This document shows positions 479 through 64,000 of a stretch of DNA of 64,000 nt, piece by piece. The notes under the pieces were generated by a model, which ran no database searches, was not told the DNA's origin, and saw only the letters and a program-made list of their open reading frames with translations. Positions within the stretch are counted from its first letter, which is position 1, and each line of letters starts with the position of its first letter. The stretch covers positions 15,886 through 79,885 of the forward strand of contig CAKZLY010000021.1 of assembly GCA_937127445.1 (NCBI GenBank). Reading direction: 5' to 3'. The DNA comes from an uncultured Ignavibacteria bacterium (GTDB lineage: Bacteria; Bacteroidota; Ignavibacteria; Kapaibacteriales; UBA2268). Position numbers and translations under genes: made by a program.

Positions 479-1126
479 ATGGATGAACTCATGCAAATTC
501 TTAGCGTACAATCGCTTGAAATAGACGAGATACAAATTATTCGTTTCGAAAAGTTTATCGACGAACGAGGCTATTTTACAGAAACCTACCGCGAAGACGA
601 TTTCTACGGAATTGACGAGCTTGCATTTATCAGGCGGTATGATTTTTTGCAGTTCAACGAATCATTTTCATATAAAAATACATTTCGTGGCTTTCACTTC
701 CAATGGAATCCTCATATGGGCAAATTAGTACGCTGCATAAGCGGGAATTTGCTTGATATGGCAATAGATATTCGCAAAGATTCAGAAACTTTTGGCAAAA
801 TTATTGCGTACGAACTTTCGGGTGCTCCAGATCTTGATTATTCAGAATGGATGTGGATACCGCCCGGATTTGCTCACGGAATGCTACTTACGAAGGATAG
901 CTACGTGCAGTATCTTTGCAGTGGGACTTATAATCCACGTTGCGAAGGAGTTATTTCGCCGTTGGCAGAAGACATTGATTGGTCGTTGTGCGACAAACGA
1001 ATTGCAAAGAAAATCAAGCAAGCGTTTAACAAAGATGTCTTAGTAAAAGAACGCGATTTGCAAGGTATGACACTTGCTCAGTGGAAGAGCAACAAGGCGT
1101 CTGATAAGTTTTTGAATATAGATTAG
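479..1126 (+). CDS. rfbC: dTDP-4-dehydrorhamnose 3,5-epimerase (RmlC)
   Basis: RmlC cupin motifs: ERGxFxExYR, FRGFHFQ, GKLVRC, DxAxDIR, WIPPGFAHG. Confidence 0.85.
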   Translation: MDELMQILSVQSLEIDEIQIIRFEKFIDERGYFTETYREDDFYGIDELAFIRRYDFLQFNESFSYKNTFRGFHFQWNPHMGKLVRCISGNLLDMAIDIRKDSETFGKIIAYELSGAPDLDYSEWMWIPPGFAHGMLLTKDSYVQYLCSGTYNPRCEGVISPLAEDIDWSLCDKRIAKKIKQAFNKDVLVKERDLQGMTLAQWKSNKASDKFLNID

Positions 1127-1127
1127 T

Positions 1128-2009
1128 ATGGACACAAAAGGCATAATTTTAGCAGGAGGCAAAGGAACGCGCCTTTATCCGATGACGTCTGTAATCAGCA
1201 AGCAACTACTGCCGATTTACGACAAGCCTATGATTTATTATCCGCTTTCCACTTTGATGCTTGCTGATATTCGTAACATTCTTATTATTTCTACACCGCG
1301 AGACCTTCCTTCGTTCCGCACCCTGCTTGGCGATGGTTCGCAATGGGGAATTAATCTGCAATACGCCGAACAACCTCACCCCGGAGGATTGCCCGAAGCA
1401 TTCATAATTGGTGCTGACTTCATCGGAGATAGCCAGAGCGTTTTGATTTTGGGCGATAATTTGTTCTATGGCGACCTTACATTTTTCCGTAAATCGCTTG
1501 AAAAAAACAATGGCGGAACAATTTTCGCTTACAATGTAGAAAAGCCACAAATGTACGGCGTAGTTGAGTTCGACAAAAGTGGTAATGTCCTTTCAATCGA
1601 GGAAAAACCGGAGAACCCGAAATCTAACTTTGCAATTCCGGGACTTTATATTTTTGACGAAAATGTTGTCGAAATTGCTCGCTCGCTTTCGCCAAGCAAC
1701 CGTGGCGAACTTGAAATAGTGGACATACACAAGCACTACTTGCGTCAGAACAGGTTGAAAGTGGCACCCATTGGGCGAGGAGTTGCCTGGCTCGATACGG
1801 GCACGCCCGAGAATTTCACCGAAGCATCGCTATTTATTATGTCCATAGAGAAGCGTCAGGGCACAAAAATTGCTTGTTTGGAAGAAATCGCATTAAATCG
1901 TAGCTTTATCTCGCTCGAACAGTTTGAAAACACAATGAATGAAATGGCGGATTGCAATTACAAAAAGTATTTGCAAAAAGTATTTGAAATGATAAAATTA
2001 TCATTGTGA
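1128..2009 (+). CDS. rfbA: Glucose-1-phosphate thymidylyltransferase (RmlA)
   Basis: N-terminal GIILAGGKGTRLYPMT nucleotidyltransferase motif plus YDKPMIYYPLSTLMLAxIR. Length is typical for RmlA. Confidence 0.9.
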   Translation: MDTKGIILAGGKGTRLYPMTSVISKQLLPIYDKPMIYYPLSTLMLADIRNILIISTPRDLPSFRTLLGDGSQWGINLQYAEQPHPGGLPEAFIIGADFIGDSQSVLILGDNLFYGDLTFFRKSLEKNNGGTIFAYNVEKPQMYGVVEFDKSGNVLSIEEKPENPKSNFAIPGLYIFDENVVEIARSLSPSNRGELEIVDIHKHYLRQNRLKVAPIGRGVAWLDTGTPENFTEASLFIMSIEKRQGTKIACLEEIALNRSFISLEQFENTMNEMADCNYKKYLQKVFEMIKLSL

Positions 2010-2062: not shown

Positions 2063-2491
2063 ATGGCTAAAAAAAGAGTAATAAAGACAAACTACTTCGG
2101 CGAGTTGGAAATAGACGAGGAGTATATTTTTAAATTCAAAGATGGAATGCTCGGATTTGAAGATTTGCATGATTATATATTAATCAGCGAGGAATCAACC
2201 GCGCCTTTTAAATGGCTAATATCTGTTGACGAGCCAGAAATAGGGTTTCCTCTGCTTAGTCCATGGCATATAGACGTATATTACGATCCCGGGATTAATT
2301 ATGACCTCGAAAAGCAAGTGCTTTTTGTGGTAATCACTTTGGAGGACGAAAACGGCGAGATGAGCGCTAATATGAAAGCGCCGGTTATATTCAACATCGA
2401 GAAGCAAACAGGAGAACAAATTATCTTGCCATCAGACAAATACACAACAAACTGTGTCATTGCAAAAAAGCAAAAAACTATAAAGGAATAG
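2063..2491 (+). CDS. fliW: Flagellar assembly factor FliW
   Basis: FliW (DUF180)-like sequence: GELEIDEEYIFKFKDGMLGFEDL ... FKWLISVDEPEIGFPLLSPW. Lies immediately upstream of csrA. Confidence 0.85.
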   Translation: MAKKRVIKTNYFGELEIDEEYIFKFKDGMLGFEDLHDYILISEESTAPFKWLISVDEPEIGFPLLSPWHIDVYYDPGINYDLEKQVLFVVITLEDENGEMSANMKAPVIFNIEKQTGEQIILPSDKYTTNCVIAKKQKTIKE

Positions 2492-2495
2492 CAAA

Positions 2496-2789
2496 ATGTT
2501 AGTTCTATCAAGGAAGATAGGAGAAGTAATCACTATCGGCAATTCAATTCAGATTACTGTTTTGAGTTACGATCGTGGGGTAGTGCGTTTGGGCATAGAA
2601 GCGCCCAAATCGGTGCCTGTGCACCGCAAGGAAATATACGAGAAGATAATCCAGATTAATCGTCAGGCAGCAAAAACTCAGCTAATGGCACTAAAAGATG
2701 CAATTGCAAATTCCAATATTAAGTTTTCGCACCTAATTGACGAAGATATTAATAGCATAGCCATAAAAAAATTAAATAACAAGGAATAA
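2496..2789 (+). CDS. csrA: Carbon storage regulator CsrA, with a ~35-aa C-terminal extension
   Basis: MLVLSRKIGEVITIG...ITVL...VRLGIEAPK..VHRKEI matches the CsrA fold signature. At 97 aa it is longer than the 61-aa E. coli CsrA. Confidence 0.9.
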   Translation: MLVLSRKIGEVITIGNSIQITVLSYDRGVVRLGIEAPKSVPVHRKEIYEKIIQINRQAAKTQLMALKDAIANSNIKFSHLIDEDINSIAIKKLNNKE

Positions 2790-2793
2790 TAAC

Positions 2794-3429
2794 ATGGCTG
2801 AATATTCTGCATTAATAATTGACGATGACGTTTGGATGCAGAGGATTTTGTCCAAAACATTAGCAAGTTATGGTTTCAAGACCTCATATCTGGCGTCCGA
2901 TGGATATAATGGCATCGCACTTGCGGTGGAGCATCTGCCAACACTGATTATCATTGATATTCTTATGCCCGAACTGTCCGGACATCAAACACTGAAAATT
3001 TTGAAGTACATCAAAACTACTAAGAATATTCCGGTAATAATGGTTTCTGCTCTTTCCGACGTAGAAAATTTAGGTTTAGCGGTCAAAAATGGCATATCCG
3101 GGTTTATTTCCAAACCTTTCACCAAAGCAACTGTTTATGATAAACTTGTAGATATTTTTGGCACTGAAAAATTAGAATTGATAATAAAAGGTATCCCGAT
3201 AGACCCAGAAGAATTGTATGTAAATGAAAAGGTATTAGCACAAAAACAGGAAGAGATGCTCGAAGCGATTTCAGGCACAAAAGAACCACCCCCAGCCGAG
3301 CCGACGCCCACTTCGGAAGAAAAACCTACACCCGTTGTCAAATCAGACACTATTTTGAAGCATTATCAAGAAGACGAAAAGAAAAGTATAGAATCTATCA
3401 AAAAGCTTCTGCTGAAGAACCGTAAGTAA
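2794..3429 (+). CDS. Single-domain CheY-like response regulator with a Pro/Glu/Thr-rich C-terminal tail
   Basis: Receiver motifs: acidic pocket IIDDD, phospho-acceptor in IIIDILMPELSG, conserved SKPF lysine. Its start is 4 nt after the csrA stop and it has an AAGGAA ribosome-binding site. Confidence 0.7.
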   Translation: MAEYSALIIDDDVWMQRILSKTLASYGFKTSYLASDGYNGIALAVEHLPTLIIIDILMPELSGHQTLKILKYIKTTKNIPVIMVSALSDVENLGLAVKNGISGFISKPFTKATVYDKLVDIFGTEKLELIIKGIPIDPEELYVNEKVLAQKQEEMLEAISGTKEPPPAEPTPTSEEKPTPVVKSDTILKHYQEDEKKSIESIKKLLLKNRK

Positions 3430-3430
3430 A

Positions 3431-3688
3431 CTATTCTTGTTTATCCAACTCATTCAAAATACGTTGAGCGGTTTCCCTCAGAACTTCCGGAGAATTATAG
3501 TAACCCGAAGAAATACGTGAAAAAATACGAGAGAGCTTTTGAGCTTCACTTGAAATAGATAATGTATCGCCTCCCAATGTAGCGGACGTTTTTCCCGATG
3601 AAGTTTTTGATTTGTCCTTCTTATCAGAAACCCGCTCGTTATCTTTAGGTCCCGACACTCCCTGCGGTTTTATTGAACTGATATCCAT
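3431..3688 (-). CDS. flgM: Anti-sigma-28 factor FlgM
   Basis: Small (85 aa), disordered Ser/Lys-rich N-terminus, and the conserved C-terminal helix region ...YNSPEVLRETAQRIL. Sits among flagellar late genes. Confidence 0.55.
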   Translation of the reverse strand: MDISSIKPQGVSGPKDNERVSDKKDKSKTSSGKTSATLGGDTLSISSEAQKLSRIFSRISSGYYNSPEVLRETAQRILNELDKQE

Positions 3689-3700
3689 ATCACACCTTGA

Positions 3701-4048
3701 TTATTTTGAATAAATTAATACCGCTTTTTGTTTATTCAGTTGCTTTAATTTTTCTCCTGTATCCTTAGTCTTCTTTCGCAACAATTCTAAATTAACAGAA
3801 TCCATTTTAACAATCAAATTGATTTTTTCATTCCATTCATCTTGTTGTTTAGCAACAAATTCCTTGCCAATATCTGTTTCGAGCAAAGATTTCAGATAAA
3901 GGATGTTTTTCTCTCTTTCTTCGTAAAGATAAGAAATTTTCTCGAGATCTTCGAGTTCGAAATTGCCATTATCCAGTGATTCGAAAATACTTCTAGTATT
4001 TTCGAGAACAAGTTCGATGTTTTTCAGTATTTCATTATACTTTTGCAT
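3701..4048 (-). CDS. Flagellar export chaperone-like protein (FliT/FlgN-like?), hypothetical
   Basis: 115 aa, helical, acidic. Positioned between flaG and flgM on the same strand. No diagnostic motif. Confidence 0.25.
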   Translation of the reverse strand: MQKYNEILKNIELVLENTRSIFESLDNGNFELEDLEKISYLYEEREKNILYLKSLLETDIGKEFVAKQQDEWNEKINLIVKMDSVNLELLRKKTKDTGEKLKQLNKQKAVLIYSK

Positions 4049-4481
4049 TAGCTATTTGTCCTTCACCTTCGAGATGGCTAACAATTCTTGCAATCTTTAG
4101 AGCAATTTCAGACGGTAATTGCTGAATTACTTCTTTTGTTTTGTTATCAATAACACGTAAAATCATTTTGTTTGTATCTTTGTCTATGGAAAATTCGAGA
4201 AAAACATCGGATTCTTTAATGATATTCTTGAGTTTTTCCCCCAGTTCTTTTAAATCAGAATTCACTTTATTTTTAAATTCCTTTTCTTTCGTCTTAACTT
4301 CTTCGGTCTGGGTTTCCTTATCAAGTTTTGCACCGACAGAAGACCCTTCTTCCTTATCAGAGCTAAATTCTGCCTTAAACTGCTCGGCGAGCAGGGCAAA
4401 TCGCTCTTTTTTGGTCTCCAGCTGCAAATCTTCGAGAGAGGTCTCTCTTATTGCAGCAGTGGGCTGAATTCCATTTATCAT
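4035..4481 (-). CDS. flaG: Flagellar protein FlaG
   Basis: C-terminal FlaG-like segment: FSIDKDTNKMILRVIDNKTKEVIQQLPSEIALKIA. Directly downstream of fliD, as in Bacillus. Confidence 0.55.
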   Translation of the reverse strand: MINGIQPTAAIRETSLEDLQLETKKERFALLAEQFKAEFSSDKEEGSSVGAKLDKETQTEEVKTKEKEFKNKVNSDLKELGEKLKNIIKESDVFLEFSIDKDTNKMILRVIDNKTKEVIQQLPSEIALKIARIVSHLEGEGQIANAKV

Positions 4482-4497: not shown

Positions 4498-6018
4498 TTA
4501 TTGTCCTAATGTTGCTTGTTGAGCAATCAAGCTATTATAGCCCGAGCTTAATGAAGAAGTTGACATTGTAGAAAGCAAAGAGTATTGTCCTTGCGCCTGT
4601 AAGAACACTTTCAGATAACTTTCATATTCTTTTCTGAGGCTTTGAGCTTGTTGCTCTATGCTTGCTTCAATAGAAGCAATTCTTTTATCTATATTAGTAA
4701 TTTCTCTTGTAATAGACTCATTTCTTACCTTCAAAAGCCCGCTATTACCACCTTGTGGTTTGAGATTGTAAATAACTTCATTGATTTTTGCAACAAACCC
4801 CGTTTCGGAAGTGAAAAGTTTGGCAATATTTTCAGCCCCGTTATCTTTTGCGAGAAATTCTTTTAATTTATCTTTGTCGCTTAGAACTAAAGTACCATCA
4901 TTATTTACTTTAAATCCAATATCAGTTAATCGCTTTGGAACATCTAAGTCGTTCGAGGGATTTAGAACGGATGTTCCAATAGATCTTAATCTTTGTTGCA
5001 GCGAAGAGATTGAAGTGTCTTGCCTTTGTATATCTTTATTTTGATTTAAATTGAACAAAACGCCGTTATATTCTTTAATCAAAGCATCGACGAAGCTTTC
5101 AAATCCATCTACATCTATATCGGTGGTAATTCCGATTGGTTGGGCATCGGCTGCTTGTGGTTTCAATAAGTTAATAGTAAGCCCCGGCAGCACATCTTTT
5201 ACTTCGTTTGAATTTCTAGTAATAGCGATACCATTTGCATCGAAGCTTGCATTAAGGAGCGATGCATCGGATACTTTATAGCCAGCCGAAGCACCGTTGA
5301 TAGTGGTTCGGGCGTTCGGATCTGTGAAAAGCGAAGTAGTCCAGCCAAGTAATTCAGTAGTTGATGTTTGAGTAAAAGTAATTTTATTATTTTCGCCGGT
5401 TTCTTTGGACATAAGAGAAATTCTTCCGGTTGTTTCGGTATCTTTCACAAGTGAAGCGCTAATTTTAACATCTTTAATTCCGTTAATAGCATTGACAATT
5501 TTTCTCATTGCTTCTTCGTTGGTTTCGCTTCCAGTGAAATTGACCGTAACGGTATAAGTTTTGTCGTTAACGGAGAGGTCGAAAGACTTTTCGCCAGCAG
5601 TTTCTCCGAACGAATTAGAAAGATTAAGTCTGTTGGAAACCAGCACATCATTTGTAGCGATGCGATTCACTTTAATGGAATTAGACCCAACTATGGCATT
5701 TCCGTCTGCTTTTACTGTAAAATAATCATTATCAGAGACTGTCGCTTTACGAGTTTTAAACTTGTCATTAATTCCGCTTGTAGGCGTAAATGTAAAATTA
5801 TCGCCAACCTTCTTATATTCGCCAAATTTATCGAGTTGAGCAATAAGCGAGTTAAGCTTACTATTCAAATTATTATAAAACTTCTGGCGAGTTTGAAGCG
5901 TTTGTTTGCGCGATTGCAAACCTTCCGTGCGAGTTGCTTGCGATTTTTTATAGGATTCAACAAGCAATTCGCTATAAGATTTGTCGCTACCTGATATTCC
6001 AAATGAGTCTATTGCCAT
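4498..6018 (-). CDS. fliD: Flagellar filament cap protein FliD (HAP2)
   Basis: FliD N-terminus (GISGSDKSYSELLVESYKKSQ..RTEGLQSRKQTLQTRQKFYNNLNSKL) and C-terminal coiled-coil FliD_C region. 506 aa. Confidence 0.85.
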   Translation of the reverse strand: MAIDSFGISGSDKSYSELLVESYKKSQATRTEGLQSRKQTLQTRQKFYNNLNSKLNSLIAQLDKFGEYKKVGDNFTFTPTSGINDKFKTRKATVSDNDYFTVKADGNAIVGSNSIKVNRIATNDVLVSNRLNLSNSFGETAGEKSFDLSVNDKTYTVTVNFTGSETNEEAMRKIVNAINGIKDVKISASLVKDTETTGRISLMSKETGENNKITFTQTSTTELLGWTTSLFTDPNARTTINGASAGYKVSDASLLNASFDANGIAITRNSNEVKDVLPGLTINLLKPQAADAQPIGITTDIDVDGFESFVDALIKEYNGVLFNLNQNKDIQRQDTSISSLQQRLRSIGTSVLNPSNDLDVPKRLTDIGFKVNNDGTLVLSDKDKLKEFLAKDNGAENIAKLFTSETGFVAKINEVIYNLKPQGGNSGLLKVRNESITREITNIDKRIASIEASIEQQAQSLRKEYESYLKVFLQAQGQYSLLSTMSTSSLSSGYNSLIAQQATLGQ

Positions 6019-6472: not shown

Positions 6473-7450
6473 TTACCTAAACAATTGCAAGAATTGTTGT
6501 GGGTTTTGGTTCGCTTGGGCAAGCGAAACAAGCGATGCTTGCTGCAAGAACTGAGACTTAATTAGCTCCATTTGTTCTGTTGCAACATCTGCATCTTCAA
6601 TACGTGATATTGCAGCTTTGTAATTTGTAATTTGCGATTTAAGCACATTTTCCTGTGAATTGATACGAACCTCAATTCCGCCGAGGTACGATGCGACTTT
6701 GTTAATATTATCAATAGCCATAGCAAGCGATGAAATTGTTCGAGTAATAGCAGAAGTAGCCCCTACGTTATTAAATATACCAAGGTTAGATGCTGAAACA
6801 GAGTTTAGGTCTTCAAGATTCAGTCCTGCAACTCCAGCAAAGTTTGTTGCAGCACCAGTTGTAGTGCCACGGACAGCAGTTGCTTCGCTTGTGGCATTCA
6901 AATCGAAGATACCATTAACATTAAAATCAGGATTGCTTGTAGTTAAGTCAATTCTAATTTTCATTAAGTTGTTGTTTGCGTAGTAACCAGTAACCCACTC
7001 ACCTGTAAAGTTACCTTGAAGTAGTTGCTTGCCGCCGAACACAGTTGAGTCTGTTATAAACTGAATTTGCTGAGCAAGGCGGTATGCACCTTTTGCGAGA
7101 GCAACTTTTTCGTCAGTTCCCAAAGCTCCTGATGATGCTGTTGCAGCGGCATCTTTGATTTGGGTAACAAGGGTACTAATCTGGTCAAGAGCATCTTGAG
7201 CTATTGATGTAACGTTTTTCGCATCGCCTGCTGAATTGAGTGCAGCTTTCAATGCACCATTGCGAGCTTGCAATGCACGTGATGTAATGTAACCAGAAAC
7301 GTCGTCAGCGGCAGAGTTAATTCTCTTGCCTGTCGATAAACGTAGTTGGCGCAAAGCAATATTATTGCTGGACGCCGTTAAAGAGTTGTAAGCATTTTCC
7401 GCGGGAATATTCGTCCGTATTCTTGAATCACCGCTAATTGCTGTTGGCAT
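6473..7450 (-). CDS. fliC: Flagellin (copy 1)
   Basis: Flagellin N- and C-terminal helical domains: LRLSTGKRINSAADDVSGY near the N-terminus and ...QASLVSLAQANQNPQQFLQLFR at the C-terminus. Has its own sigma-28 promoter. Confidence 0.85.
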   Translation of the reverse strand: MPTAISGDSRIRTNIPAENAYNSLTASSNNIALRQLRLSTGKRINSAADDVSGYITSRALQARNGALKAALNSAGDAKNVTSIAQDALDQISTLVTQIKDAAATASSGALGTDEKVALAKGAYRLAQQIQFITDSTVFGGKQLLQGNFTGEWVTGYYANNNLMKIRIDLTTSNPDFNVNGIFDLNATSEATAVRGTTTGAATNFAGVAGLNLEDLNSVSASNLGIFNNVGATSAITRTISSLAMAIDNINKVASYLGGIEVRINSQENVLKSQITNYKAAISRIEDADVATEQMELIKSQFLQQASLVSLAQANQNPQQFLQLFR

Positions 7451-7522: not shown

Positions 7523-7549
7523 TTATCGGCAATTATAACAAAAACTTTA
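7523..7549 (-). promoter_or_regulatory. Sigma-28 (FliA) promoter for flagellin copy 1
   Basis: Minus strand reads TAAA-N15-GCCGATAA, a perfect match to the sigma-28 consensus, about 75 nt upstream of the start codon. Confidence 0.7.
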
Positions 7550-7625: not shown

Positions 7626-8612
7626 TTATCTGAATAGCTGCAAGAACTGTTGTGGATTTTGGTTGGCCTGGCTTAATGATACCAAAGAAGCTTGCTGCAA
7701 GAATTGTGACTTAATGAGTTCCATTTGTTCTGTTGCAACATCTGCATCTTCGATACGCGAAATAGCTGCTTTGTAGTTTGTGATTTGAGATTTCAACATT
7801 GCTTCCTGCGAGTTGATACGCACCTCAATACCACCAAGATATGATGCAACTTTGTTAATGTTGTCAATTGCCATTGCAAGTGATTGCAAGGTTCTAACAA
7901 CATTGGACTTACCAGTCGAATCATTTAAGTAACCGAAATAGCCCAAATCTGAGGAACTGATATTGTTGAACTCTTCCAAATTTAAGCCTGTAACACCTGC
8001 AAAGTTATTCGATGCGCCAGATACTGAACCACGAACGGCAGTTGCTTCGCTTGTAGCATTCAAGTCGAACAATCCATTGACGTTAAAGTCCCTGTTGTTC
8101 ACAGTGAGGTCAATGGAAATTTTCATCAAATCGTTGTTTGCATAGTAACCAGTAACCCACTCACCTGTAAAGTTACCTTGAAGTAGTTGCTTGCCGCCGA
8201 ACACAGTTGAGTCTGTTATAAACTGAATTTGCTGAGCAAGGCGGTATGCGCCTTTTGCGAGAGCAACTTTTTCGTCGGTGCCCAAAGCTCCTGATGATGC
8301 AGTTGCAGTAGCGTCCTTAATTTGAGCCATTAATGAGTAAATCTGGTCAAGAGCATCCTGCGCAATAGATGTTACGTTCTTTGCATCTCCGGCAGAGTTG
8401 AGAGCAGCTTTCAAGGCACCATTGCGAGCTTGCAATGCACGTGAAGTGATATAGCCCGATACATCATCAGCTGCTGAGTTAATGCGTTTGCCTGTGGAAA
8501 GGCGCAGCTGGCGTAGAGCTATGTTACTGCTTGATGCTGATAATGCATTATAGGCATTTTCTGCCGGGATGTTGGTACGAATGCGGCTATCTCCGCTAAT
8601 TGCTGATGGCAT
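7626..8612 (-). CDS. fliC: Flagellin (copy 2, tandem paralog)
   Basis: Same conserved termini as copy 1 with a divergent central domain. Has its own sigma-28 promoter. Confidence 0.85.
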   Translation of the reverse strand: MPSAISGDSRIRTNIPAENAYNALSASSSNIALRQLRLSTGKRINSAADDVSGYITSRALQARNGALKAALNSAGDAKNVTSIAQDALDQIYSLMAQIKDATATASSGALGTDEKVALAKGAYRLAQQIQFITDSTVFGGKQLLQGNFTGEWVTGYYANNDLMKISIDLTVNNRDFNVNGLFDLNATSEATAVRGSVSGASNNFAGVTGLNLEEFNNISSSDLGYFGYLNDSTGKSNVVRTLQSLAMAIDNINKVASYLGGIEVRINSQEAMLKSQITNYKAAISRIEDADVATEQMELIKSQFLQQASLVSLSQANQNPQQFLQLFR

Positions 8613-8693: not shown

Positions 8694-8720
8694 TTTTCGG
8701 CATTTTTCTGAAAAACTTTA
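8694..8720 (-). promoter_or_regulatory. Sigma-28 (FliA) promoter for flagellin copy 2
   Basis: Minus strand reads TAAA-N15-GCCGAAAA (one mismatch to GCCGATAA), about 80 nt upstream of the start. Confidence 0.6.
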
Positions 8721-8799: not shown

Positions 8800-9867
8800 T
8801 TAAAAATTCATTATTTTTTTTACTGCATCGAATATCTTTTCAGGTAGAAGGTGTTCTAAACAGAAGTACTCATCGTTTACACATTTCGGGCTAAAAAAGC
8901 ATTTGCACTCTTTATCTGGCTCAACTATTATGCCTCGACCATAAAGTTCAAATTCGTTTTTATTGAATATATTATTTATTAGCACAACTTTTTTTCGCAG
9001 TCCAATTGCGATATGCAGCCCCATTGTTACAGCAGTTACCACCAAATCGCATTGATTAACAAGCGAAATGAACGTGTTTAAGTCAAAGAAACCAAAATAC
9101 TGTGCTCCGCTCTTTTGCGATATTATCGTGTTCTGCTCGTGCTCTTGCTCCCCACCTAATAGAATTACCTTGTAACCCTCATCTTGCAGATGTTTAGCAA
9201 GTTCTATCCAATATTCTTGTTTCCATAGTCGTGAAACCCAGCGAGCGCCACATCCGGTATTCAATCCGATTACACCTTTCCCTCGATCTGAGATATCCCA
9301 CTGCTTATCAGTTCTAACTTCCAACTCGTATTCTTCGCCGGAAAATTCATAGCCGCATATTTCGAAAATTTCTTGAAGATAATTTTTTGTGTTTGCTTTG
9401 TTGACATCGTCGAAAAGCCCTGTTAAATATTTGTGCATAGCACGTTGGTTTGCGGGCATTGGCTTGCCTTCGACAAGTGTGAAGCCATCGATATAATCTG
9501 CATTCAGTTGCGACGCCAACGCACAAGCGTGATAGTCTTTGTCAAGATTGATTACTTTGAAAAAATGCACGCTGCGCAAACTTATTACAGATTCAAGATT
9601 AAATAGCAACACTTTATCGACTGAGGACGGAATAATTTCAGGCGAGTTTGTTACCCACCAAAGCATACATTTTGGGAACTCCTGTTTTATGCGTTTGATA
9701 AGAGGTGTTGTTCGTATTACATCTCCAATAGCACCAAGCTTTATTATTAATATATTTTCTTTCGATGGTGAATATTCGGGACAATTTTGGCAATGGTAGC
9801 CATTTTTTTTATGCGGACGGCAGGGAATATCGCCGCGAAAATACCTGCAATCTTCTTTGAACAGCAT
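8800..9867 (-). CDS. GT9-family glycosyltransferase (heptosyltransferase-like) with Cys-rich N- and C-terminal extensions
   Basis: GT9 motif LIIKLGAIGDVIRTTPLIKRIK. N-terminus has CxxxxxxxxC...CxxC; C-terminus has CKC...PKC...FC. Confidence 0.7.
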   Translation of the reverse strand: MLFKEDCRYFRGDIPCRPHKKNGYHCQNCPEYSPSKENILIIKLGAIGDVIRTTPLIKRIKQEFPKCMLWWVTNSPEIIPSSVDKVLLFNLESVISLRSVHFFKVINLDKDYHACALASQLNADYIDGFTLVEGKPMPANQRAMHKYLTGLFDDVNKANTKNYLQEIFEICGYEFSGEEYELEVRTDKQWDISDRGKGVIGLNTGCGARWVSRLWKQEYWIELAKHLQDEGYKVILLGGEQEHEQNTIISQKSGAQYFGFFDLNTFISLVNQCDLVVTAVTMGLHIAIGLRKKVVLINNIFNKNEFELYGRGIIVEPDKECKCFFSPKCVNDEYFCLEHLLPEKIFDAVKKIMNF

Positions 9868-9875
9868 TTTCTCAC

Positions 9876-10610
9876 CTATAATGAGTATTTCAACAAAAGC
9901 ATAAAATTAAAAACAGGAACTATCTGTTCTTTCTTTTCAAAATATCGAAGCGGGGTTAGCAATTCTCCGCGATTATTGTCTCTTGGAAAGAGGTTCAATA
10001 CCCCAACGCCAATAGAGGCATCAATTTTTAATTTAGATTTAAGTTGCCCTTCTATTCCCAATCGGGCAAAGCTTCCAATACGAAACGCCCCGTATTTTCT
10101 ATTTACTACATAGGAGGTATCACGATTTACGTCGTTCCGCCAGTGGTCGCGGTAGGTCAGTTCTGCTCGAGTTATTATATTACCACGCAAATCTGCACCG
10201 ACATAAATATCGGTTTTTGCCCAATCTAAATGAGTAAGTACATAATAAAACCCTGAGCCAATCGAAAGATTGTGCACCTCGTGCCAATAATAAATCGTAA
10301 GCAAGCCACTCACAGGATAGCGTTCGCCTGATGAATATATAGTAAAATCAATATCAACAGGAACACGTATTTTTTCGCCCTTGTACATAGTCAGTCGCGC
10401 AGCAAATCCTGATTGGACAGCATCAAAACTACCACCATAAACAAATCTCTTTGCCGTATCATTTTGTATTATCGGCAACTGGGCTGGATTGTCACCTAAT
10501 ATTGAAAATGTTGATATTCCTGCTCCAATAGAATATGCATCGAATATCTCGGCTTTTACTGCTGTAGCAAAGAGAAATATCCAGAGTGCAATTGAAAGTA
10601 ATTTTTTCAT
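9876..10610 (-). CDS. Secreted outer-membrane beta-barrel-like protein, hypothetical
   Basis: Signal peptide MKKLLSIALWIFLFATAVKA, alternating amphipathic beta-strands, aromatic C-terminal residues. Confidence 0.45.
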   Translation of the reverse strand: MKKLLSIALWIFLFATAVKAEIFDAYSIGAGISTFSILGDNPAQLPIIQNDTAKRFVYGGSFDAVQSGFAARLTMYKGEKIRVPVDIDFTIYSSGERYPVSGLLTIYYWHEVHNLSIGSGFYYVLTHLDWAKTDIYVGADLRGNIITRAELTYRDHWRNDVNRDTSYVVNRKYGAFRIGSFARLGIEGQLKSKLKIDASIGVGVLNLFPRDNNRGELLTPLRYFEKKEQIVPVFNFMLLLKYSL

Positions 10611-10668
10611 ATTATTGTTTGTTTGTGTAAAAATATCATTCATAATAACAAAAAAGAGTGCTCTTTTG

Positions 10669-11727
10669 CTACAATTTTTCTTTTATTGAATAATTTTTTG
10701 TCTTTTCGAAGTTCTGCTTTACTATCATCTCCCCTACCAGCCCGATTGAAAAGAACTGTACACCAACAATAATCAAAGCGATGCCAAAATTCGCAAGCGG
10801 GCGATTGCTTAAATACGTACTACCAAGAAACCATTCGACAGTCAGGTATGCATTAATTGCAAATCCTATCAACGTGAAAATCGTCCCGAATAGTCCAAAG
10901 AAGTGCATTGGTCGCTTCATAAACCGTGTGATGAACACAAAGGTAAGCAAATCCAGAAATCCATTAATAAATCGGGACAATCCAAATTTGGATTTGCCAT
11001 ACCGCCGAGCGTGATGAACTACAGGAATTTCTGCCACACGGAAACCTTCCCAGTAGGCAAGTGCAGGCAAATAGCGATGCATCTCTCCATATACTTGCAG
11101 TGTATCGGTTACAGACTTCCGATATAGCTTAAGCCCGCAGTTAAAATCGTGCAATTTTATACCGCTTACCATTGATGTTACAAAATTGAATAGTTTTGAG
11201 GGGATTGTCTTCGATATTGGGTCCTTGCGGTTTTGCTTCCAGCCAGTAACAAGGTCGTAGCCTTCTTTCATTTTCTTTGCTAAATTTTTAATTTCGGCGG
11301 GGTCGTCCTGCAAGTCTGCATCCATTGTTGCAACAAATTTTCCGCGAGCAGCTTCGAAACCAACAGCAAGAGCGGCACTTTTTCCATAGTTGCGTCGGAA
11401 ACTAATATAGCGAAATCGTTTATTTCGACGATGTATCTGCTTGATGTAGTCAAGTGAACCATCTGTAGAGCCATCATCTACAAAAATAACTTCATAGCGT
11501 CCGTGTGTGAGTTCTTGGAGTTCTTTTTCTAATTGCAATGCAAGCTCGGGAATTGATTCTTCTTCATTATATAGTGGAATTACAACAGAAATCAACAGTT
11601 CGCTTTTACTGTTTTTTTGTTGGCTCTGTTGGTTTTGATTAGAACGCTTTACGTTTTGCCCTTCTTTTTGGTTGATTTTTTCTTTTTTTTGGCTTTCTTT
11701 TCTATTGTTGCTATTTTTTTTGTCCAT
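10669..11727 (-). CDS. GT2 polyprenol-phosphate glycosyltransferase (GtrB/ArnC/DPM1-like) with a K/N/Q-rich N-terminal tail
   Basis: VVIPLYNEEESI ... FVDDGSTDGS ... DADLQDDP GT2 motifs, plus two C-terminal TM helices. Confidence 0.8.
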   Translation of the reverse strand: MDKKNSNNRKESQKKEKINQKEGQNVKRSNQNQQSQQKNSKSELLISVVIPLYNEEESIPELALQLEKELQELTHGRYEVIFVDDGSTDGSLDYIKQIHRRNKRFRYISFRRNYGKSAALAVGFEAARGKFVATMDADLQDDPAEIKNLAKKMKEGYDLVTGWKQNRKDPISKTIPSKLFNFVTSMVSGIKLHDFNCGLKLYRKSVTDTLQVYGEMHRYLPALAYWEGFRVAEIPVVHHARRYGKSKFGLSRFINGFLDLLTFVFITRFMKRPMHFFGLFGTIFTLIGFAINAYLTVEWFLGSTYLSNRPLANFGIALIIVGVQFFSIGLVGEMIVKQNFEKTKNYSIKEKL

Positions 11728-11730
11728 AAT

Positions 11731-12507
11731 CTATCTGTTAATTATTAATTTTTTAAAATAAATATTGTTGTTGATGTCTAAAATTTTAATAAAATAAATA
11801 CCATTCTTTAAATTTACAAGATTAATTTTTTCGCTTGTAGGTAAATTGGTATTAAACATTAGTTCAGATAATTCATTATAAATTTCAATCTTACTGACTT
11901 TTGTGCTATTACTTACGGAAATCCAGCTATTAGATGGATTTGGAAAAACTTCAAAAATTTCTTTGTTTTCTGGAATAGAAGTAGGCACTTTTGTATATAC
12001 TACATCAATATAAATTGGCACTTTCGGTAGGTTTTCATTGTTAATTACAACAGAAGTAGTCTTTGTCATATCTGCCGAAAAGAGAAGTCCCAGTTCATCA
12101 TAAATTCTTGCAGATTTAATGTAATTTGGCAACTTATTCCACGAAATAGTTGCAACAGAAGGGACTCGTTTGTTTAAATCAATTTTGTAACGGTGGTGGA
12201 ATTCATTTTCGTCGGCGGGGACACTTCTAAAATCCTTGTAGCTGTATAGGCCTTCTATATTTATGGTATCTAAATTGAAAACAGCAAATACATCAAATGC
12301 TGGTGGTGGAAATGGCGGTATTTCTATTTCGCCAAGATGAGTATCTAATCCGTCAGTAGCCGACGAAACCGCCCCAAACACAAGAAGCGTATCGATAGCG
12401 AATGTATTATTAATTGTAAGCCGAACTTTCACATCAAATTCGTCGGCTGTTGCTTCTGAATACATAAGTATCGTAATTATTGCAATAGCAAACAGTTTTA
12501 TTTTCAT
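11731..12507 (-). CDS. Secreted protein with T9SS C-terminal sorting domain
   Basis: Signal peptide. C-terminus ...KNGIYFIKILDINNNIYFKKLIINR matches the Por/T9SS CTD pattern. Confidence 0.6.
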   Translation of the reverse strand: MKIKLFAIAIITILMYSEATADEFDVKVRLTINNTFAIDTLLVFGAVSSATDGLDTHLGEIEIPPFPPPAFDVFAVFNLDTINIEGLYSYKDFRSVPADENEFHHRYKIDLNKRVPSVATISWNKLPNYIKSARIYDELGLLFSADMTKTTSVVINNENLPKVPIYIDVVYTKVPTSIPENKEIFEVFPNPSNSWISVSNSTKVSKIEIYNELSELMFNTNLPTSEKINLVNLKNGIYFIKILDINNNIYFKKLIINR

Positions 12508-40519: not shown

Positions 40520-41266
40520 TTAATAATTTATTACTTTAAATAATAGGTCGTTCCCTTCTAATTCGTATTCAACATATTTTATTGGAACACATCTATTATT
40601 CATATCATTGAAATGCTTTAAACTTTCTATTATTTTTTTATAATTTTCTGAAGTTTTGTTAAGTATTTTTTTAGAAATCAATACTGGTTGAATATCGCTA
40701 ATTCTATTAGGGACATAATATTGCTCTAACCAATCAACATATCTTTGGATTTGAAGAGTATTATCTATTCTCGCTTCAGTCGCTTTAAGTTCGATAAGCA
40801 AAACAAGTCTTCTGTTGTCACCAATGAGAGAAAGCATTATACCCATTTTTTGCATACCAACACCACAAGCAACCTCATTTCCTAACCATTCTTAAACCTC
40901 AAAAGTTTCAAGCAAAGTTCTAAATGTTAATGACTTGATAAGTTCACTTTTTAAAAATTGATTGGAATCGTTATTATCCAAAAAAGATAAATCTTCTTTG
41001 GTTTTAAAAATACCATAGAATTTACCTTCTCATACTTTTTCAGAGTAATTTTGTTGTAAATAGAAAACGACAAAATCACCCTTTCTGATTCTTTGAGAGT
41101 CAGCAATCATTCCAACCAGATTATTTTCTGTTGAGTAATTCAACTGTGATCTCGGGTTATCATTAAAATCAATATAGTTTTCTTTTGCTCCTGTCCCAGC
41201 AAATTGGTATTCTAAATGATACTTAAATGTGTTAGTGTCAACAATGAAAACATGCGTTGTGCTCAT
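40520..41266 (-). pseudogene. PD-(D/E)xK restriction endonuclease-like gene disrupted by two in-frame stop codons (TGA at 41027-29, TAA near 40880)
   Basis: ORFs 41030..41266 and 40520..40855 are in the same frame, separated only by two nonsense codons. (D/E)xK motif LVLLIELKAT. Start overlaps the upstream methyltransferase by 4 nt. Confidence 0.55.
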
Positions 41267-42410
41267 CTTTTTACCTTTTTAAACAAAAAAATATATTCGT
41301 GTTTGAAAATATAAAATCCACCGACTAAAGCTCTATATCGCCATAATTCCTTTTGGTTCTTTTTTCCTTTTGTTTCTTCAAAATTTTTAACAATTGTGGA
41401 TTTTAAAATATATCCTCTTTTCAGGACTTCATTCATAGTATAAAATGCCAACGGTATCCACTCACCTTGCGAATACTTGTCTCCAATTACAATTGCTAAA
41501 TATCTTCCATAATCTAAAATATTATAAGTATTATCCAAAACCTTGCTAAATAAACTCAAGAATTCTTCTATACTTGAAGCATTTGATAAATCTTTCTTGT
41601 TATTGCTAAATTTTATTATATCCCAATAGGATGGATGCATAATTAAGAACTGAACAGATTTGATATTTCTTTTTTCTAATTCCTGTCTAAAATTTAATTC
41701 TGCACTGTCTGCATTTATTACTTCTGTTCTAACATTTAATATATTTTCCTCTGCAAAAATATTTTTCTTGGCAACTTCCACCACTTTTTGTTGAAGTTCT
41801 ACTCCAATTCCATTTCTCCCTAATCTTCTACACTCAATTAGCGTCGTTCCACTACCCAAAAATGGATCTAACACCCATTCTCACCTTGTTTAGTATATCT
41901 TCGTAAAAATTGATTAGGGATTTGTGGTATAAAATTGCCCCAATACCCAGCATTGTGCGCACCAGAATTATCCCTATTTTCTAATATCCATAAGCTATCT
42001 GTAATTATATCATCATATTCTTTCCATCGATTTAAGTTTATATCATTAATTTTACTTGTTTTAATCTCTATTAGACTTTTTTTAAGGCGAGATATATAAT
42101 ACTTCGCTCTTTCAACGGTTTGAGCTTCGACAATTTGGCTTAAATCTTCAAGCAGCGTATTTCTTTTTATTTTCAGAATATCCCCGTCAATTGAAATCTT
42201 CAGTAGTTCTAATTCATCCTTTCTTATATTTTTTACAATTTCTAATACTTTTTGAACTTCTAACTTAATTTTACTTGTCTCGTGTAATGTTTCAATATTC
42301 GACAAAACTTCAAGAAAGATCTTCTTATTGATAATTAAATCTATTTTATTATCAAACTTTTTATAAGAATCATCACTAAATTCAAATAAAGTAAAATTTT
42401 CGTTTTTCAT
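41263..42410 (-). pseudogene. N6/N4 amino-DNA methyltransferase, frameshifted within a CCC (GGG on the coding strand) run between motif X and motif I
   Basis: Frame A ends ...IPQIPNQFLRRYTKQGENGC*. Frame B continues (E)WVLDPFLGSGTT...VELQ...MHPSYW. Inserting one G restores ...ENG-VLDPFLGSGTT. Confidence 0.6.
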
Positions 42411-62460: not shown

Positions 62461-63858
62461 TTACTTTTTCAGACGACTGCGTAGAGCACTCGTTGTAAGC
62501 CCAAGATAACGAGCGGTTTGAGTTTTATTGCCGTTAAACTTAGCAAGCGCTTTTTGAACTATCTCATAATTAAGTTCTTCCAGATTAATTTCTTCGTCTG
62601 GAAGCACAAAACTGCCTGGACGCAAGACAAATTTATCTGCATCTCCCAATTGACTGTATTCTTCGAGAAATGAAATATGATTAGAACGAAGTTCATAGTC
62701 GTCGTAGAGCAACACAACCCGTTCGATAGCATTTTTCAGTTCTCTTACATTTCCATACCAGGGATGTTCCTGCAATATCTTTACAGCATATTTATCAATA
62801 AGCCTGAATTTTTTATCACGTTCAATTGCGAAATTCGTCACAAACATTTGAGCCATCGGAGCAATTGCCTCTTTCTGCTGTCGCAGCGAAGGCAGCACCA
62901 GATGAGCAGCACACAAGCGATAATACAAATCTATTCTAAAACGGTTGCTCTCAACCATATCTTTCAGATTTTTATTTGTCGAAGCAATTATTCTTACATT
63001 CAAAGGGATTTTCTCCACTCCACCGACACGGTAAAACGCCTTTTCTTCGAGAACACGCAGCAATTTAGCCTGCAGCTCGTTCGGTATTTCGCCAATTTCA
63101 TCAAGCAGAAGAGTACCACCCTGAGCAATATCGAGTTTCCCACGTTTACCACCGCTTTTGCCACCGGTAAATGACCCTTCGTCGTAACCAAAGAGTTCGC
63201 TTTCGAATAAACTGGGTGTAATAGCGGCACAATTTATTGTAACAAATGGTTTTTTATTCCCTTTTTCGCCGTGATGAATAAGCGATGCAATTATTTCCTT
63301 GCCGGTTCCGCTTTCGCCTTCGATTAGCACGGGCAGATTGTCCTGGCTAAGTTTTAGAGCTGTTTCGACAATTTTCTGCATTTGATCGGAAAAAACGCCT
63401 ATTTTCCCGATAACAGGATGTTCAAAACACGAATAATGCAGCATTTGTTTTTTTTCGTCTTTTTCATTTGCAGTATCATTTATTTGGTTCTTCTCGGATA
63501 AAATTCTACTAATCACATCGGCAACGTAGCTGATTTCAATAGGTTTCACTAAATAATCATATGCACCCTGTCGAATTGCTTCAATACAAGTATCTAAATT
63601 TGCAAATCCAGTAACAAGAATCACCTTAGTATTTTTGATATTTTTCGACGATTTAATTTCACGAAGCAACTGCATCCCGTTCATTCCTGGCATACGAATG
63701 TCAGTGATAACAATCGGAGTATTGTGTTGTCCCAAATATTCAAGAGCATCGTAAGCTGAAGAAAATTGCGAAACTTGTATAGACAAGAAATCTCTGATGT
63801 ATACCGCAAGCATCTCACGGCTACTATCGTCGTCATCTACTATTACAACGCTACTCAT
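62461..63858 (-). CDS. Sigma-54-dependent NtrC-family response regulator
   Basis: Receiver domain, AAA+ sigma-54 interaction domain (GESGTGKE, GAFTGA-like region), C-terminal Fis-type HTH. Its ATG overlaps the stop of the upstream kinase gene. Confidence 0.85.
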   Translation of the reverse strand: MSSVVIVDDDDSSREMLAVYIRDFLSIQVSQFSSAYDALEYLGQHNTPIVITDIRMPGMNGMQLLREIKSSKNIKNTKVILVTGFANLDTCIEAIRQGAYDYLVKPIEISYVADVISRILSEKNQINDTANEKDEKKQMLHYSCFEHPVIGKIGVFSDQMQKIVETALKLSQDNLPVLIEGESGTGKEIIASLIHHGEKGNKKPFVTINCAAITPSLFESELFGYDEGSFTGGKSGGKRGKLDIAQGGTLLLDEIGEIPNELQAKLLRVLEEKAFYRVGGVEKIPLNVRIIASTNKNLKDMVESNRFRIDLYYRLCAAHLVLPSLRQQKEAIAPMAQMFVTNFAIERDKKFRLIDKYAVKILQEHPWYGNVRELKNAIERVVLLYDDYELRSNHISFLEEYSQLGDADKFVLRPGSFVLPDEEINLEELNYEIVQKALAKFNGNKTQTARYLGLTTSALRSRLKK

Positions 63859-63859
63859 A

Positions 63860-64000
63860 CTACTCACCTCTATAAATAGGGAAGTTTATAATAAAAGTAG
63901 CACCGCCATCTTCGTTGTTCATTGGCTGAACAGTTCCTTTGTATTTATCGACAAACATTTTAACAATTGCGAGCCCCAACCCCGTCCCACCAACGCTTTG
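63860..64000 (-). CDS. Sensor histidine kinase, 3' end (partial; continues beyond the window)
   Basis: HATPase_c G2 box ...GGTGLGLAIVKMFVDKYKGTVQ.... Its stop codon overlaps the response-regulator start. Confidence 0.7.
   Translation of the reverse strand, partial: QSVGGTGLGLAIVKMFVDKYKGTVQPMNNEDGGATFIINFPIYRGE

Follow-up and report, generated by a model that had tools for sequence, protein, structure and literature searches.

What role, if any, does a stand-alone receiver protein play when its gene directly follows fliW and csrA, the genes for a flagellar assembly factor and the translational repressor that it antagonizes? The question is raised by a 64,000-nucleotide stretch of DNA from an uncultured Ignavibacteria bacterium (contig CAKZLY010000021.1, positions 15,886 to 79,885; hereafter the window), in which a first-pass annotation had noted three head-to-tail open reading frames (ORFs) encoding FliW, CsrA, and a CheY-like response regulator (hereafter the regulator), the last starting 4 nt after csrA behind a good ribosome-binding site (RBS). 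These coordinates were confirmed (Table 1). The fliW/csrA and csrA/regulator intergenic gaps are 4 nt each, and AAGGAA precedes the start codons of both csrA and the regulator, lying 8–9 nt 5′ of the regulator ATG. All three proteins were assigned to their families. Residues 24–130 of FliW aligned to positions 2–119 of the 122-position PF02623 profile, and the protein also matched the NCBIfam FliW equivalogs, but under their strict cut-offs. CsrA scored 84.5 bits against TIGR00202 (cut-off 70.1) and 83.7 bits against PF02599 (cut-off 27), and it has the N-terminal MLxLxRK and the GxxxxxR RNA-binding core of the family. The receiver domain scored 71.6 bits against PF00072 (cut-off 30.2) and retained the phospho-acceptor residues. 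An independent promoter or terminator between csrA and the regulator would have spoken against a shared transcript, and a consensus scan of that interval gave no promoter-like or terminator-like site. The sole terminator-like hairpin (2364–2381) lies within fliW and was dismissed as a real terminator, as one such hairpin was found versus 1.0 expected by chance. From this layout and from the conservation described below we infer that the three genes form one co-transcribed unit, probably with translational coupling.

The conservation of this arrangement was examined in both directions. A scan of one genome per species returned 210 relatives of the regulator, and the best 80 were taken for neighborhood comparison. 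In 79 of these 80 genomes, the gene immediately before the regulator, on the same strand, is csrA, and fliW is found upstream of csrA at 74 of the 80 loci. The csrA-regulator gap has a median of about 14 nt; 13 gene pairs overlap by 4 or 8 nt, 16 are separated by 1–4 nt, and only four gaps exceed 100 nt. For the reverse test, a metagenome scan was seeded with a FliW alignment, and loci were considered usable if csrA was present and followed by more than 450 nt of sequence. The regulator gene follows csrA immediately in 59 of the resulting 61 loci; the two exceptions (L166 and L168) encode the most distant FliWs (38% and 34% identity) and have the order fliW-csrA-flagellin. In total, about 140 loci from related uncultured Kapabacteria and Ignavibacteria carry the receiver gene after csrA, so the linkage that the first-pass annotation had asked to be checked is present, and the regulator is neither absent nor unlinked in close relatives. 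A search of a representative set of 1.8 billion proteins extended the family to distant homologues, of which P0123, P0128, P0132, and P0204 (about 40% identity) are still encoded after fliW-csrA; one further member comes from a contig of 1.2 kb, where a second receiver gene precedes it. As far as the record names show, the module is confined to metagenome-assembled genomes (MAGs) of Kapabacteria and Ignavibacteria, within the Bacteroidota/Chlorobiota group; a cultured carrier was sought, and every named match was such a MAG. The source records label these proteins just "response regulator" or "CheY-like".

The genes around the triad vary. A MotB-like gene lies upstream in 56 of the 80 genomes, the window's lineage has rmlC-rmlA upstream in that position and flgM downstream, and in still others the triad is followed by hemC, a gene for an HD-domain protein, or transporter genes. 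With the triad constant and the flanks changing, fliW-csrA-regulator moves as a block. The MotB-like gene is an orphan that encodes plug and OmpA domains and has no motA beside it (L005, 4198–5043; L081, 3486–4268; L133, 2134–2904; and 53 others), and its position directly before fliW in most relatives suggests a common ancestral order of motB-like, fliW, csrA, and regulator. A few loci in which the order is broken are informative about which gene the regulator follows. In L039 and L053, csrA and the regulator are kept with a junction of the 8-nt class, and a gene for an unrelated 1226-amino-acid protein takes the place of fliW upstream. In L132 and L133, motB-fliW is kept, and csrA and the regulator are both missing; motB-fliW is followed by 616 nt without an ORF (3418–4033 in L133) and then by dnaA, in the position that the pair occupies in all other relatives. 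L038 is the only regulator-seeded genome locus with a regulator but no motB-fliW-csrA, and this regulator departs most often from the columns conserved to at least 95%, with five substitutions compared with a median of zero. These few cases point to a regulator that tracks csrA rather than fliW, motB, or the flanking genes.

The regulator was dissected using alignments of 25, 78, and 102 sequences. Homologues with 55–95% identity span all 211 residues, and residues 1–135 are extremely conserved. Among the 102 sequences, D11, D12, D55, and K107 are invariant, and D10, S85, and F104 are conserved in at least 90%; together these provide the acidic pocket (D10/D11/D12), the phospho-acceptor (D55), and the remaining receiver positions S85, F104, and K107. 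Helix alpha-1 (WMQRILSKT) is almost invariant as well. An AlphaFold model built with the 102 sequences has a predicted local distance difference test score (pLDDT) of 94–98 across the receiver, with alpha-5 running to residue 132. Judged by these residues, the protein is a phosphorylation-competent stand-alone receiver. Pfam and NCBIfam matched only residues ~4–126, with no DNA-binding, ATPase, or enzymatic domain; lacking a DNA-binding or ATPase domain after the receiver, the protein does not belong to the OmpR, NarL, NtrC, or LytTR types.

The remainder of the protein had been described in the first-pass annotation as a single low-complexity tail of about 90 residues rich in Pro, Glu, and Thr. 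Such a stretch is present, but the tail as a whole resolves into a variable linker and a conserved terminal motif. In 78 homologues the linker has a column conservation of 10–40%, a length of 37–61 amino acids, and a composition rich in Glu (14%), Ser (11%), and Asp (10%); the Pro/Glu/Thr run within it is specific to the window's lineage and not conserved. Residues 163–192 are predicted to be disordered (pLDDT < 50). The motif that follows is a conserved helix of about 25 amino acids with the consensus LLxHYQDDEKRSIESIKKLLLKxKK, in which Y191 and L206 are invariant and K196, I199, E200, I202, K204, and L207 are conserved in at least 90% of sequences. A regular expression for the motif matched 70 of 79 homologues at a position 3–12 residues from the C-terminus, and the last eight residues of the regulators carry a mean net charge of +3.4. 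In the AlphaFold model the helix (184–208) has a pLDDT of about 60 and no confident docking on the receiver. An undocked, conserved terminal helix in a protein with no output domain is consistent with a motif for binding to a partner in trans, and we read it as a tethered segment that would fold on such a partner rather than pack on its own receiver. Two apparent resemblances of this helix were rejected. Mimicry of flagellin (IESIKKLLL versus MELIKSQFL) was discarded because both flagellin ORFs scored at noise level with the motif profile. The tail of the window's CsrA, HLIDEDINSIAIKKL, resembles the regulator end, HYQEDEKKSIESIKKLL, and this likeness was attributed to chance because the CsrA tail is unconserved beyond residue 72; the motif profile matched the CsrA ORF with an E-value of only 6.3.

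The CsrA itself had also been singled out in the first-pass annotation as unusually long. That description is accurate relative to textbook CsrAs; within its own clade, where CsrAs are mostly 93–111 amino acids, a length of 97 is normal, and the extra part is variable and not tied to the regulator. A comparison of 71 clade CsrAs divided the protein into an RNA-binding core (residues 1–51), a conserved helical extension to about residue 72, and a variable tail to residue 97, with MLVLSRKIGE and VRLGIEAPK conserved. The C-terminal extension beyond the core, together with an adjoining fliW that ends 4 nt upstream, is as expected for a FliW-type CsrA. Since the helix is conserved to about residue 72 and the rest is variable, the extension fits such a CsrA, and the extra length can be explained without the regulator. 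The possibility that CsrA acts at the regulator RBS was considered as well, as ACAAGGA precedes the regulator ATG. GGA occurs at −22 to −4 in 36 of 78 homologues, a frequency no higher than Shine-Dalgarno usage gives, and autoregulation at this site is thus unsupported. In three relatives (L010, L012, and L013), the sequence CACAAGGAUGUGA occupies the RBS region of fliW, about 15 nt before the start codon (near 5215–5230). It agrees almost perfectly with RUACARGGAUGU, the high-affinity CsrA binding consensus, and hints that CsrA may repress its own operon in these genomes.

The presumed targets of the system are also encoded in the window. As the first-pass annotation had reported, the flagellin genes are on the opposite strand under sigma-28-type promoters of their own, one an exact and the other a near match to the consensus. 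They belong to a convergent, minus-strand late flagellar block comprising a weak FlgM-like ORF, a possible FliT/FlgN-like ORF, flaG, fliD, fliS, and the two flagellins. The leader of flagellin gene 1 presents a GGA in a hairpin loop (UUUUGGUG-GAGGAGG-CACCAAAA) and GGGAGG at the RBS, and is a likely CsrA target; the fold of this leader has a z-score of −1.27, which on its own is not significant. The leader of flagellin gene 2 contains the GGA motifs AUAGGAC, GGCAGGAUGCC, and, at the RBS, AUGGAGG, and the hairpin is absent from its minimum-energy fold. In their arrangement of motifs, both leaders appear to be laid out like CsrA-controlled flagellin mRNAs. The exact pattern TAAA-N15-GCCGATAA occurs twice in the window compared with 0.31 expected matches, once at the flagellin gene 1 promoter and once on the plus strand at 418–444, within the 3′ end of bshC. 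The latter is a tentative candidate promoter for an rmlC-rmlA-fliW-csrA-regulator transcript, and its presence means that the operon may be driven by sigma-28 and may begin upstream of fliW. Comparable sigma-28-type matches are found in about 14 relatives, with approximately 10 located before motB, two before fliW, and two in the fliW-csrA spacer. Based on these consensus matches, we place the module, by inference, in the sigma-28 (late) expression class.

The FliW-CsrA-flagellin switch is known from Bacillus subtilis and also from Campylobacter, Borrelia, Clostridioides, and Geobacter. The window resembles the B. subtilis FliW-CsrA-Hag system in having adjacent, closely spaced fliW and csrA, sigma-28-type flagellin promoters, flagellin leaders with GGA motifs that include the RBS, and a C-terminal extension on CsrA, the region that FliW binds in Bacillus (PMC7652899). 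It differs in what follows csrA. In Bacillus this is hag, whereas here it is the conserved receiver gene; the order fliW-csrA-flagellin is not found in the window, where, unlike in the Bacillus operon, the flagellins lie about 3 kb away on the other strand. The FliW-CsrA system operates near 1:1 stoichiometry, with FliW bound to the extended CsrA C-terminus; fliW is anti-correlated with BarA-UvrY, and FliW systems have been treated as lacking two-component input (PMC7652899). The switch as described has three nodes and no such input, whereas the operon examined here adds a receiver gene. To our knowledge, CsrA control of the FliW type is both the ancestral form and the most widespread one, and such systems have been described as closed three-protein homeostats without signaling input, and the only two-component input to CsrA that we know of is in Gammaproteobacteria, where it operates via decoy small RNAs (sRNAs). 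If the role proposed below holds, the regulator would resemble the gammaproteobacterial BarA/UvrY (GacS/GacA)-CsrB/RsmY pathway in feeding a phospho-signal into CsrA activity. The response regulator of that pathway is a DNA-binding transcription factor that induces the decoy sRNAs, whereas the window's regulator has no DNA-binding domain and its gene sits in a csrA operon within a FliW-type system, so that any input would have to pass between proteins. CesT of enteropathogenic Escherichia coli offers a parallel in concept only, namely CsrA modulation by a protein instead of an sRNA; it has no sequence or fold relation to the regulator, for which binding to CsrA is hypothetical. Full-text literature searches did not turn up any account of a fliW-csrA operon that includes a receiver gene.

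Against this background, the csrA-linked receiver suggests a previously undescribed route by which phosphorylation could act on the FliW-CsrA switch for flagellin. FliW and CsrA most likely work as in the established partner switch, in which CsrA would block flagellin translation at the GGA sites of the flagellin leaders, FliW would free CsrA, and flagellin would titrate FliW. Given its association with csrA and its intact phospho-acceptor residues, the regulator could be a stoichiometric partner of CsrA or of CsrA-FliW under phosphorylation control, a proposal that we advance tentatively and with less than even confidence. Phosphorylation of D55 by a kinase would alter the binding of the receiver face and the tethered helix to CsrA or FliW, and the regulator would then shift the set-point of flagellin translation upon a signal other than filament assembly; the phosphorylation itself, the partner bound, and the sign of the effect are all parts of this proposed scheme. 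Cast as a fourth node of the FliW-CsrA-flagellin switch, with one phospho-state binding CsrA or CsrA-FliW through the receiver face, the helix, or both, the role of the regulator is possible but somewhat unlikely. The first-pass annotation had offered two readings, an added level of CsrA/FliW control that depends on phosphorylation or an output akin to chemotaxis, and as a pair these remain compatible with all of the findings.

Several points weigh against a CsrA-directed role. No kinase is conserved in the gene neighborhood of the regulator. The C-terminal motif has no detectable likeness to the CsrA tail or to flagellin, a likeness that might have hinted at competition for FliW. Genes that stay together in an operon do not necessarily encode interacting proteins, and chemotaxis genes often share transcripts with late flagellar genes. 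Among solved structures, those nearest to the receiver are CheY proteins. In one distant lineage (P0127) the regulator is unlinked and lies before the ATP synthase operon, and all of the genomes with the module are uncultured MAGs. The main rival, which we regard as possible but somewhat unlikely, is that the regulator is a CheY-like protein directed at the motor or stator, such as an auxiliary CheY, a brake, or a clutch. The phosphorylated form or the C-terminal helix would then bind the flagellar switch or the stator rather than CsrA or FliW, and the place of the gene in a late operon would serve merely for co-production with the stator, flagellin chaperones, and filament. By both sequence and fold, the regulator indeed matches CheY best (E = 8e-16), and it shares with E. 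coli CheY a single receiver, 33–36% identity, a template modeling score of 0.82, the catalytic residues, and the aromatic switch position F104. Its top NCBIfam match is the CheY equivalog (NF007901), but with 63.7 bits compared with a cut-off of 189 it is CheY-like by fold only; compared with CheY it has 80–90 extra residues (the extended alpha-5, the linker, and the conserved helix) and is encoded with csrA rather than with che genes. The MotB-like gene at the head of the operon in 56 of 80 relatives and the sigma-28-type promoters, which point to class III co-expression, would likewise suit a motor protein, but the module has parted from motB, and not from csrA, in the window's lineage, and the regulator is also gone where motB-fliW remain without csrA (L132 and L133). 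Motor-acting CheY-like proteins with functional C-terminal extensions do exist, for example the Cle proteins, which like the regulator combine a CheY-like receiver with a short C-terminal peptide in a flagellar context and whose motif is a tandem [Y/F]xGP[D/E][R/K]R in a C-terminal arginine-rich region (PMC5677366). The regulator does not belong among them, as the Cle-type cyclic di-GMP motif was matched in none of 79 family members, its phospho-acceptor residues are strictly conserved, and Cle proteins are mostly alphaproteobacterial; FliM- and CheZ-type CheY-binding peptides were likewise matched in 0 of 79. The related, cultured Ignavibacterium album has a canonical cheY within its che cluster (PMC3362086), and by analogy a separate main CheY would be expected in this genome, which counts against the motor-directed reading.

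An adaptor function is less probable still, and we consider it unlikely. Here the regulator would be a phosphorylation-gated adaptor or localization factor in the manner of CpdR or RssB, delivering CsrA, FliW, flagellin, or FlgM to a protease or the export gate, or else a phosphate sink for a flagellum-related kinase. A single receiver without enzymatic or DNA-binding output and a short, conserved, basic-ended motif on a flexible tether, as in a docking peptide, would be in keeping with this view, which is otherwise an argument by analogy: the likeness to CpdR and RssB is confined to the generic receiver fold, and no protease or export gene is conserved alongside. Orphan receiver proteins are very common, and it was also considered whether an unrelated response regulator simply lies after csrA by chance. 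Adjacency is maintained at roughly 140 independent loci at ~40–95% protein identity and amid changing flanks, with stop and start codons that overlap in places and with csrA and the regulator missing together, and this spread of identities rules out assembly duplicates of a few genomes. Retention on such a scale makes chance adjacency not credible, and we treat it as excluded for practical purposes.

A receiver kept beside csrA across a large lineage is a concrete candidate for two-component input to a FliW-type Csr system, and the comparison defines a small uncharacterized protein family consisting of a receiver, an acidic tether, and the helix LLxHYQDDEKRSIESIKKLLLK, with D55 and the terminal helix singled out as the residues of interest. 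If the regulator is a fourth node of the switch, it would provide a direct, protein-level two-component input by which an environmental or cellular signal, in addition to filament export, sets flagellin translation, making it the first protein antagonist or co-factor of CsrA to be regulated by phosphorylation. If it instead acts on the motor, it would still be a useful addition to the flagellar regulation of Bacteroidota/Chlorobiota, as a new CheY-like accessory of the motor that docks through a tethered helix.

Table 1. Features of the fliW-csrA-regulator locus and its surroundings, in window coordinates.
Feature	Position	Strand	Description
Sigma-28-type consensus TAAAATTTTAAATGAAATAGCCGATAA	418–444	+	3′ end of bshC, 35 nt before rmlC; tentative promoter
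rmlC	479–1126	+	PF00908, 3.9e-39; dTDP-rhamnose gene, 5′ of fliW
rmlA	1128–2009	+	PF00483, 5.8e-68; dTDP-rhamnose gene, directly 5′ of fliW
fliW	2063–2491	+	142 aa; PF02623, E = 1.3e-26; flagellar assembly factor, CsrA antagonist
csrA	2496–2789	+	97 aa; PF02599, E = 8.5e-24; TIGR00202
Regulator (receiver protein)	2794–3429	+	211 aa; PF00072 at residues 7–116, E = 7.5e-20
Receiver (REC) domain	2794–3189	+	Regulator residues 1–132; PF00072
Variable acidic linker	3202–3348	+	Regulator residues ~137–185; holds the Pro/Glu/Thr-rich stretch
C-terminal motif TILKHYQEDEKKSIESIKKLLLKNRK	3349–3429	+	Regulator residues 186–211, followed by the stop codon; predicted amphipathic helix with basic end
flgM-like gene	3431–3688	−	85 aa; TIGR03824, E = 3.5e-4, under the family cut-off; convergent
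Flagellin gene 1	6473–7450	−	PF00669, PF00700; exact sigma-28 consensus TAAA-N15-GCCGATAA at 7549–7523
Flagellin gene 2	7626–8612	−	Near-consensus sigma-28 promoter GCCGAAAA at 8720–8694

A number of further observations were made at this and related loci. The rmlC-rmlA pair before fliW is particular to the window's lineage, the MotB-like gene occupying that place in most relatives. On the other side, 1 nt separates the regulator stop codon from that of the convergent flgM-like gene (3427–3433), and no terminator-like structure was found there; with this spacing, the two transcripts must overlap or end within the opposing coding sequence. The tandem flagellins are nearly identical at both termini and diverge in their central domains, with three GGA motifs in each leader. 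Genes for GT9 and GT2 family glycosyltransferases directly follow the flagellin pair (8800–11727), and rmlC and rmlA follow the 3′ end of bshC (140–2009), an arrangement around the late flagellar block that looks like a flagellin glycosylation island. Among the relatives, L086 has a full-length gene for a sigma-70-family sigma factor (3318–4178) before fliW, and L086 (5697–6494) and L088 (5669–6475) share a conserved protein of 265–268 amino acids without a Pfam match, encoded after the regulator on the same strand.

Elsewhere in the window, an Rfam scan identified four tRNAs and nothing else, and the minus strand at 62461–63867 encodes an NtrC-type, sigma-54-dependent response regulator with REC, AAA+, and HTH_8 domains. 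Two overlapping ORFs of 203 and 180 amino acids are located at 41263–42410 on the minus strand, and the match of the first to the N6/N4 DNA methylase profile is confined to the C-terminal end of that profile, suggesting that the pair may be a frameshifted or split methyltransferase. A minus-strand run at 11731–33719 encodes proteins with type IX secretion C-terminal sorting domains (Por_Secre_tail and FlgD_ig), including giants of 2694 and 1836 amino acids with BNR/PSII_BNR and Chlamydia-PMP-like repeats.

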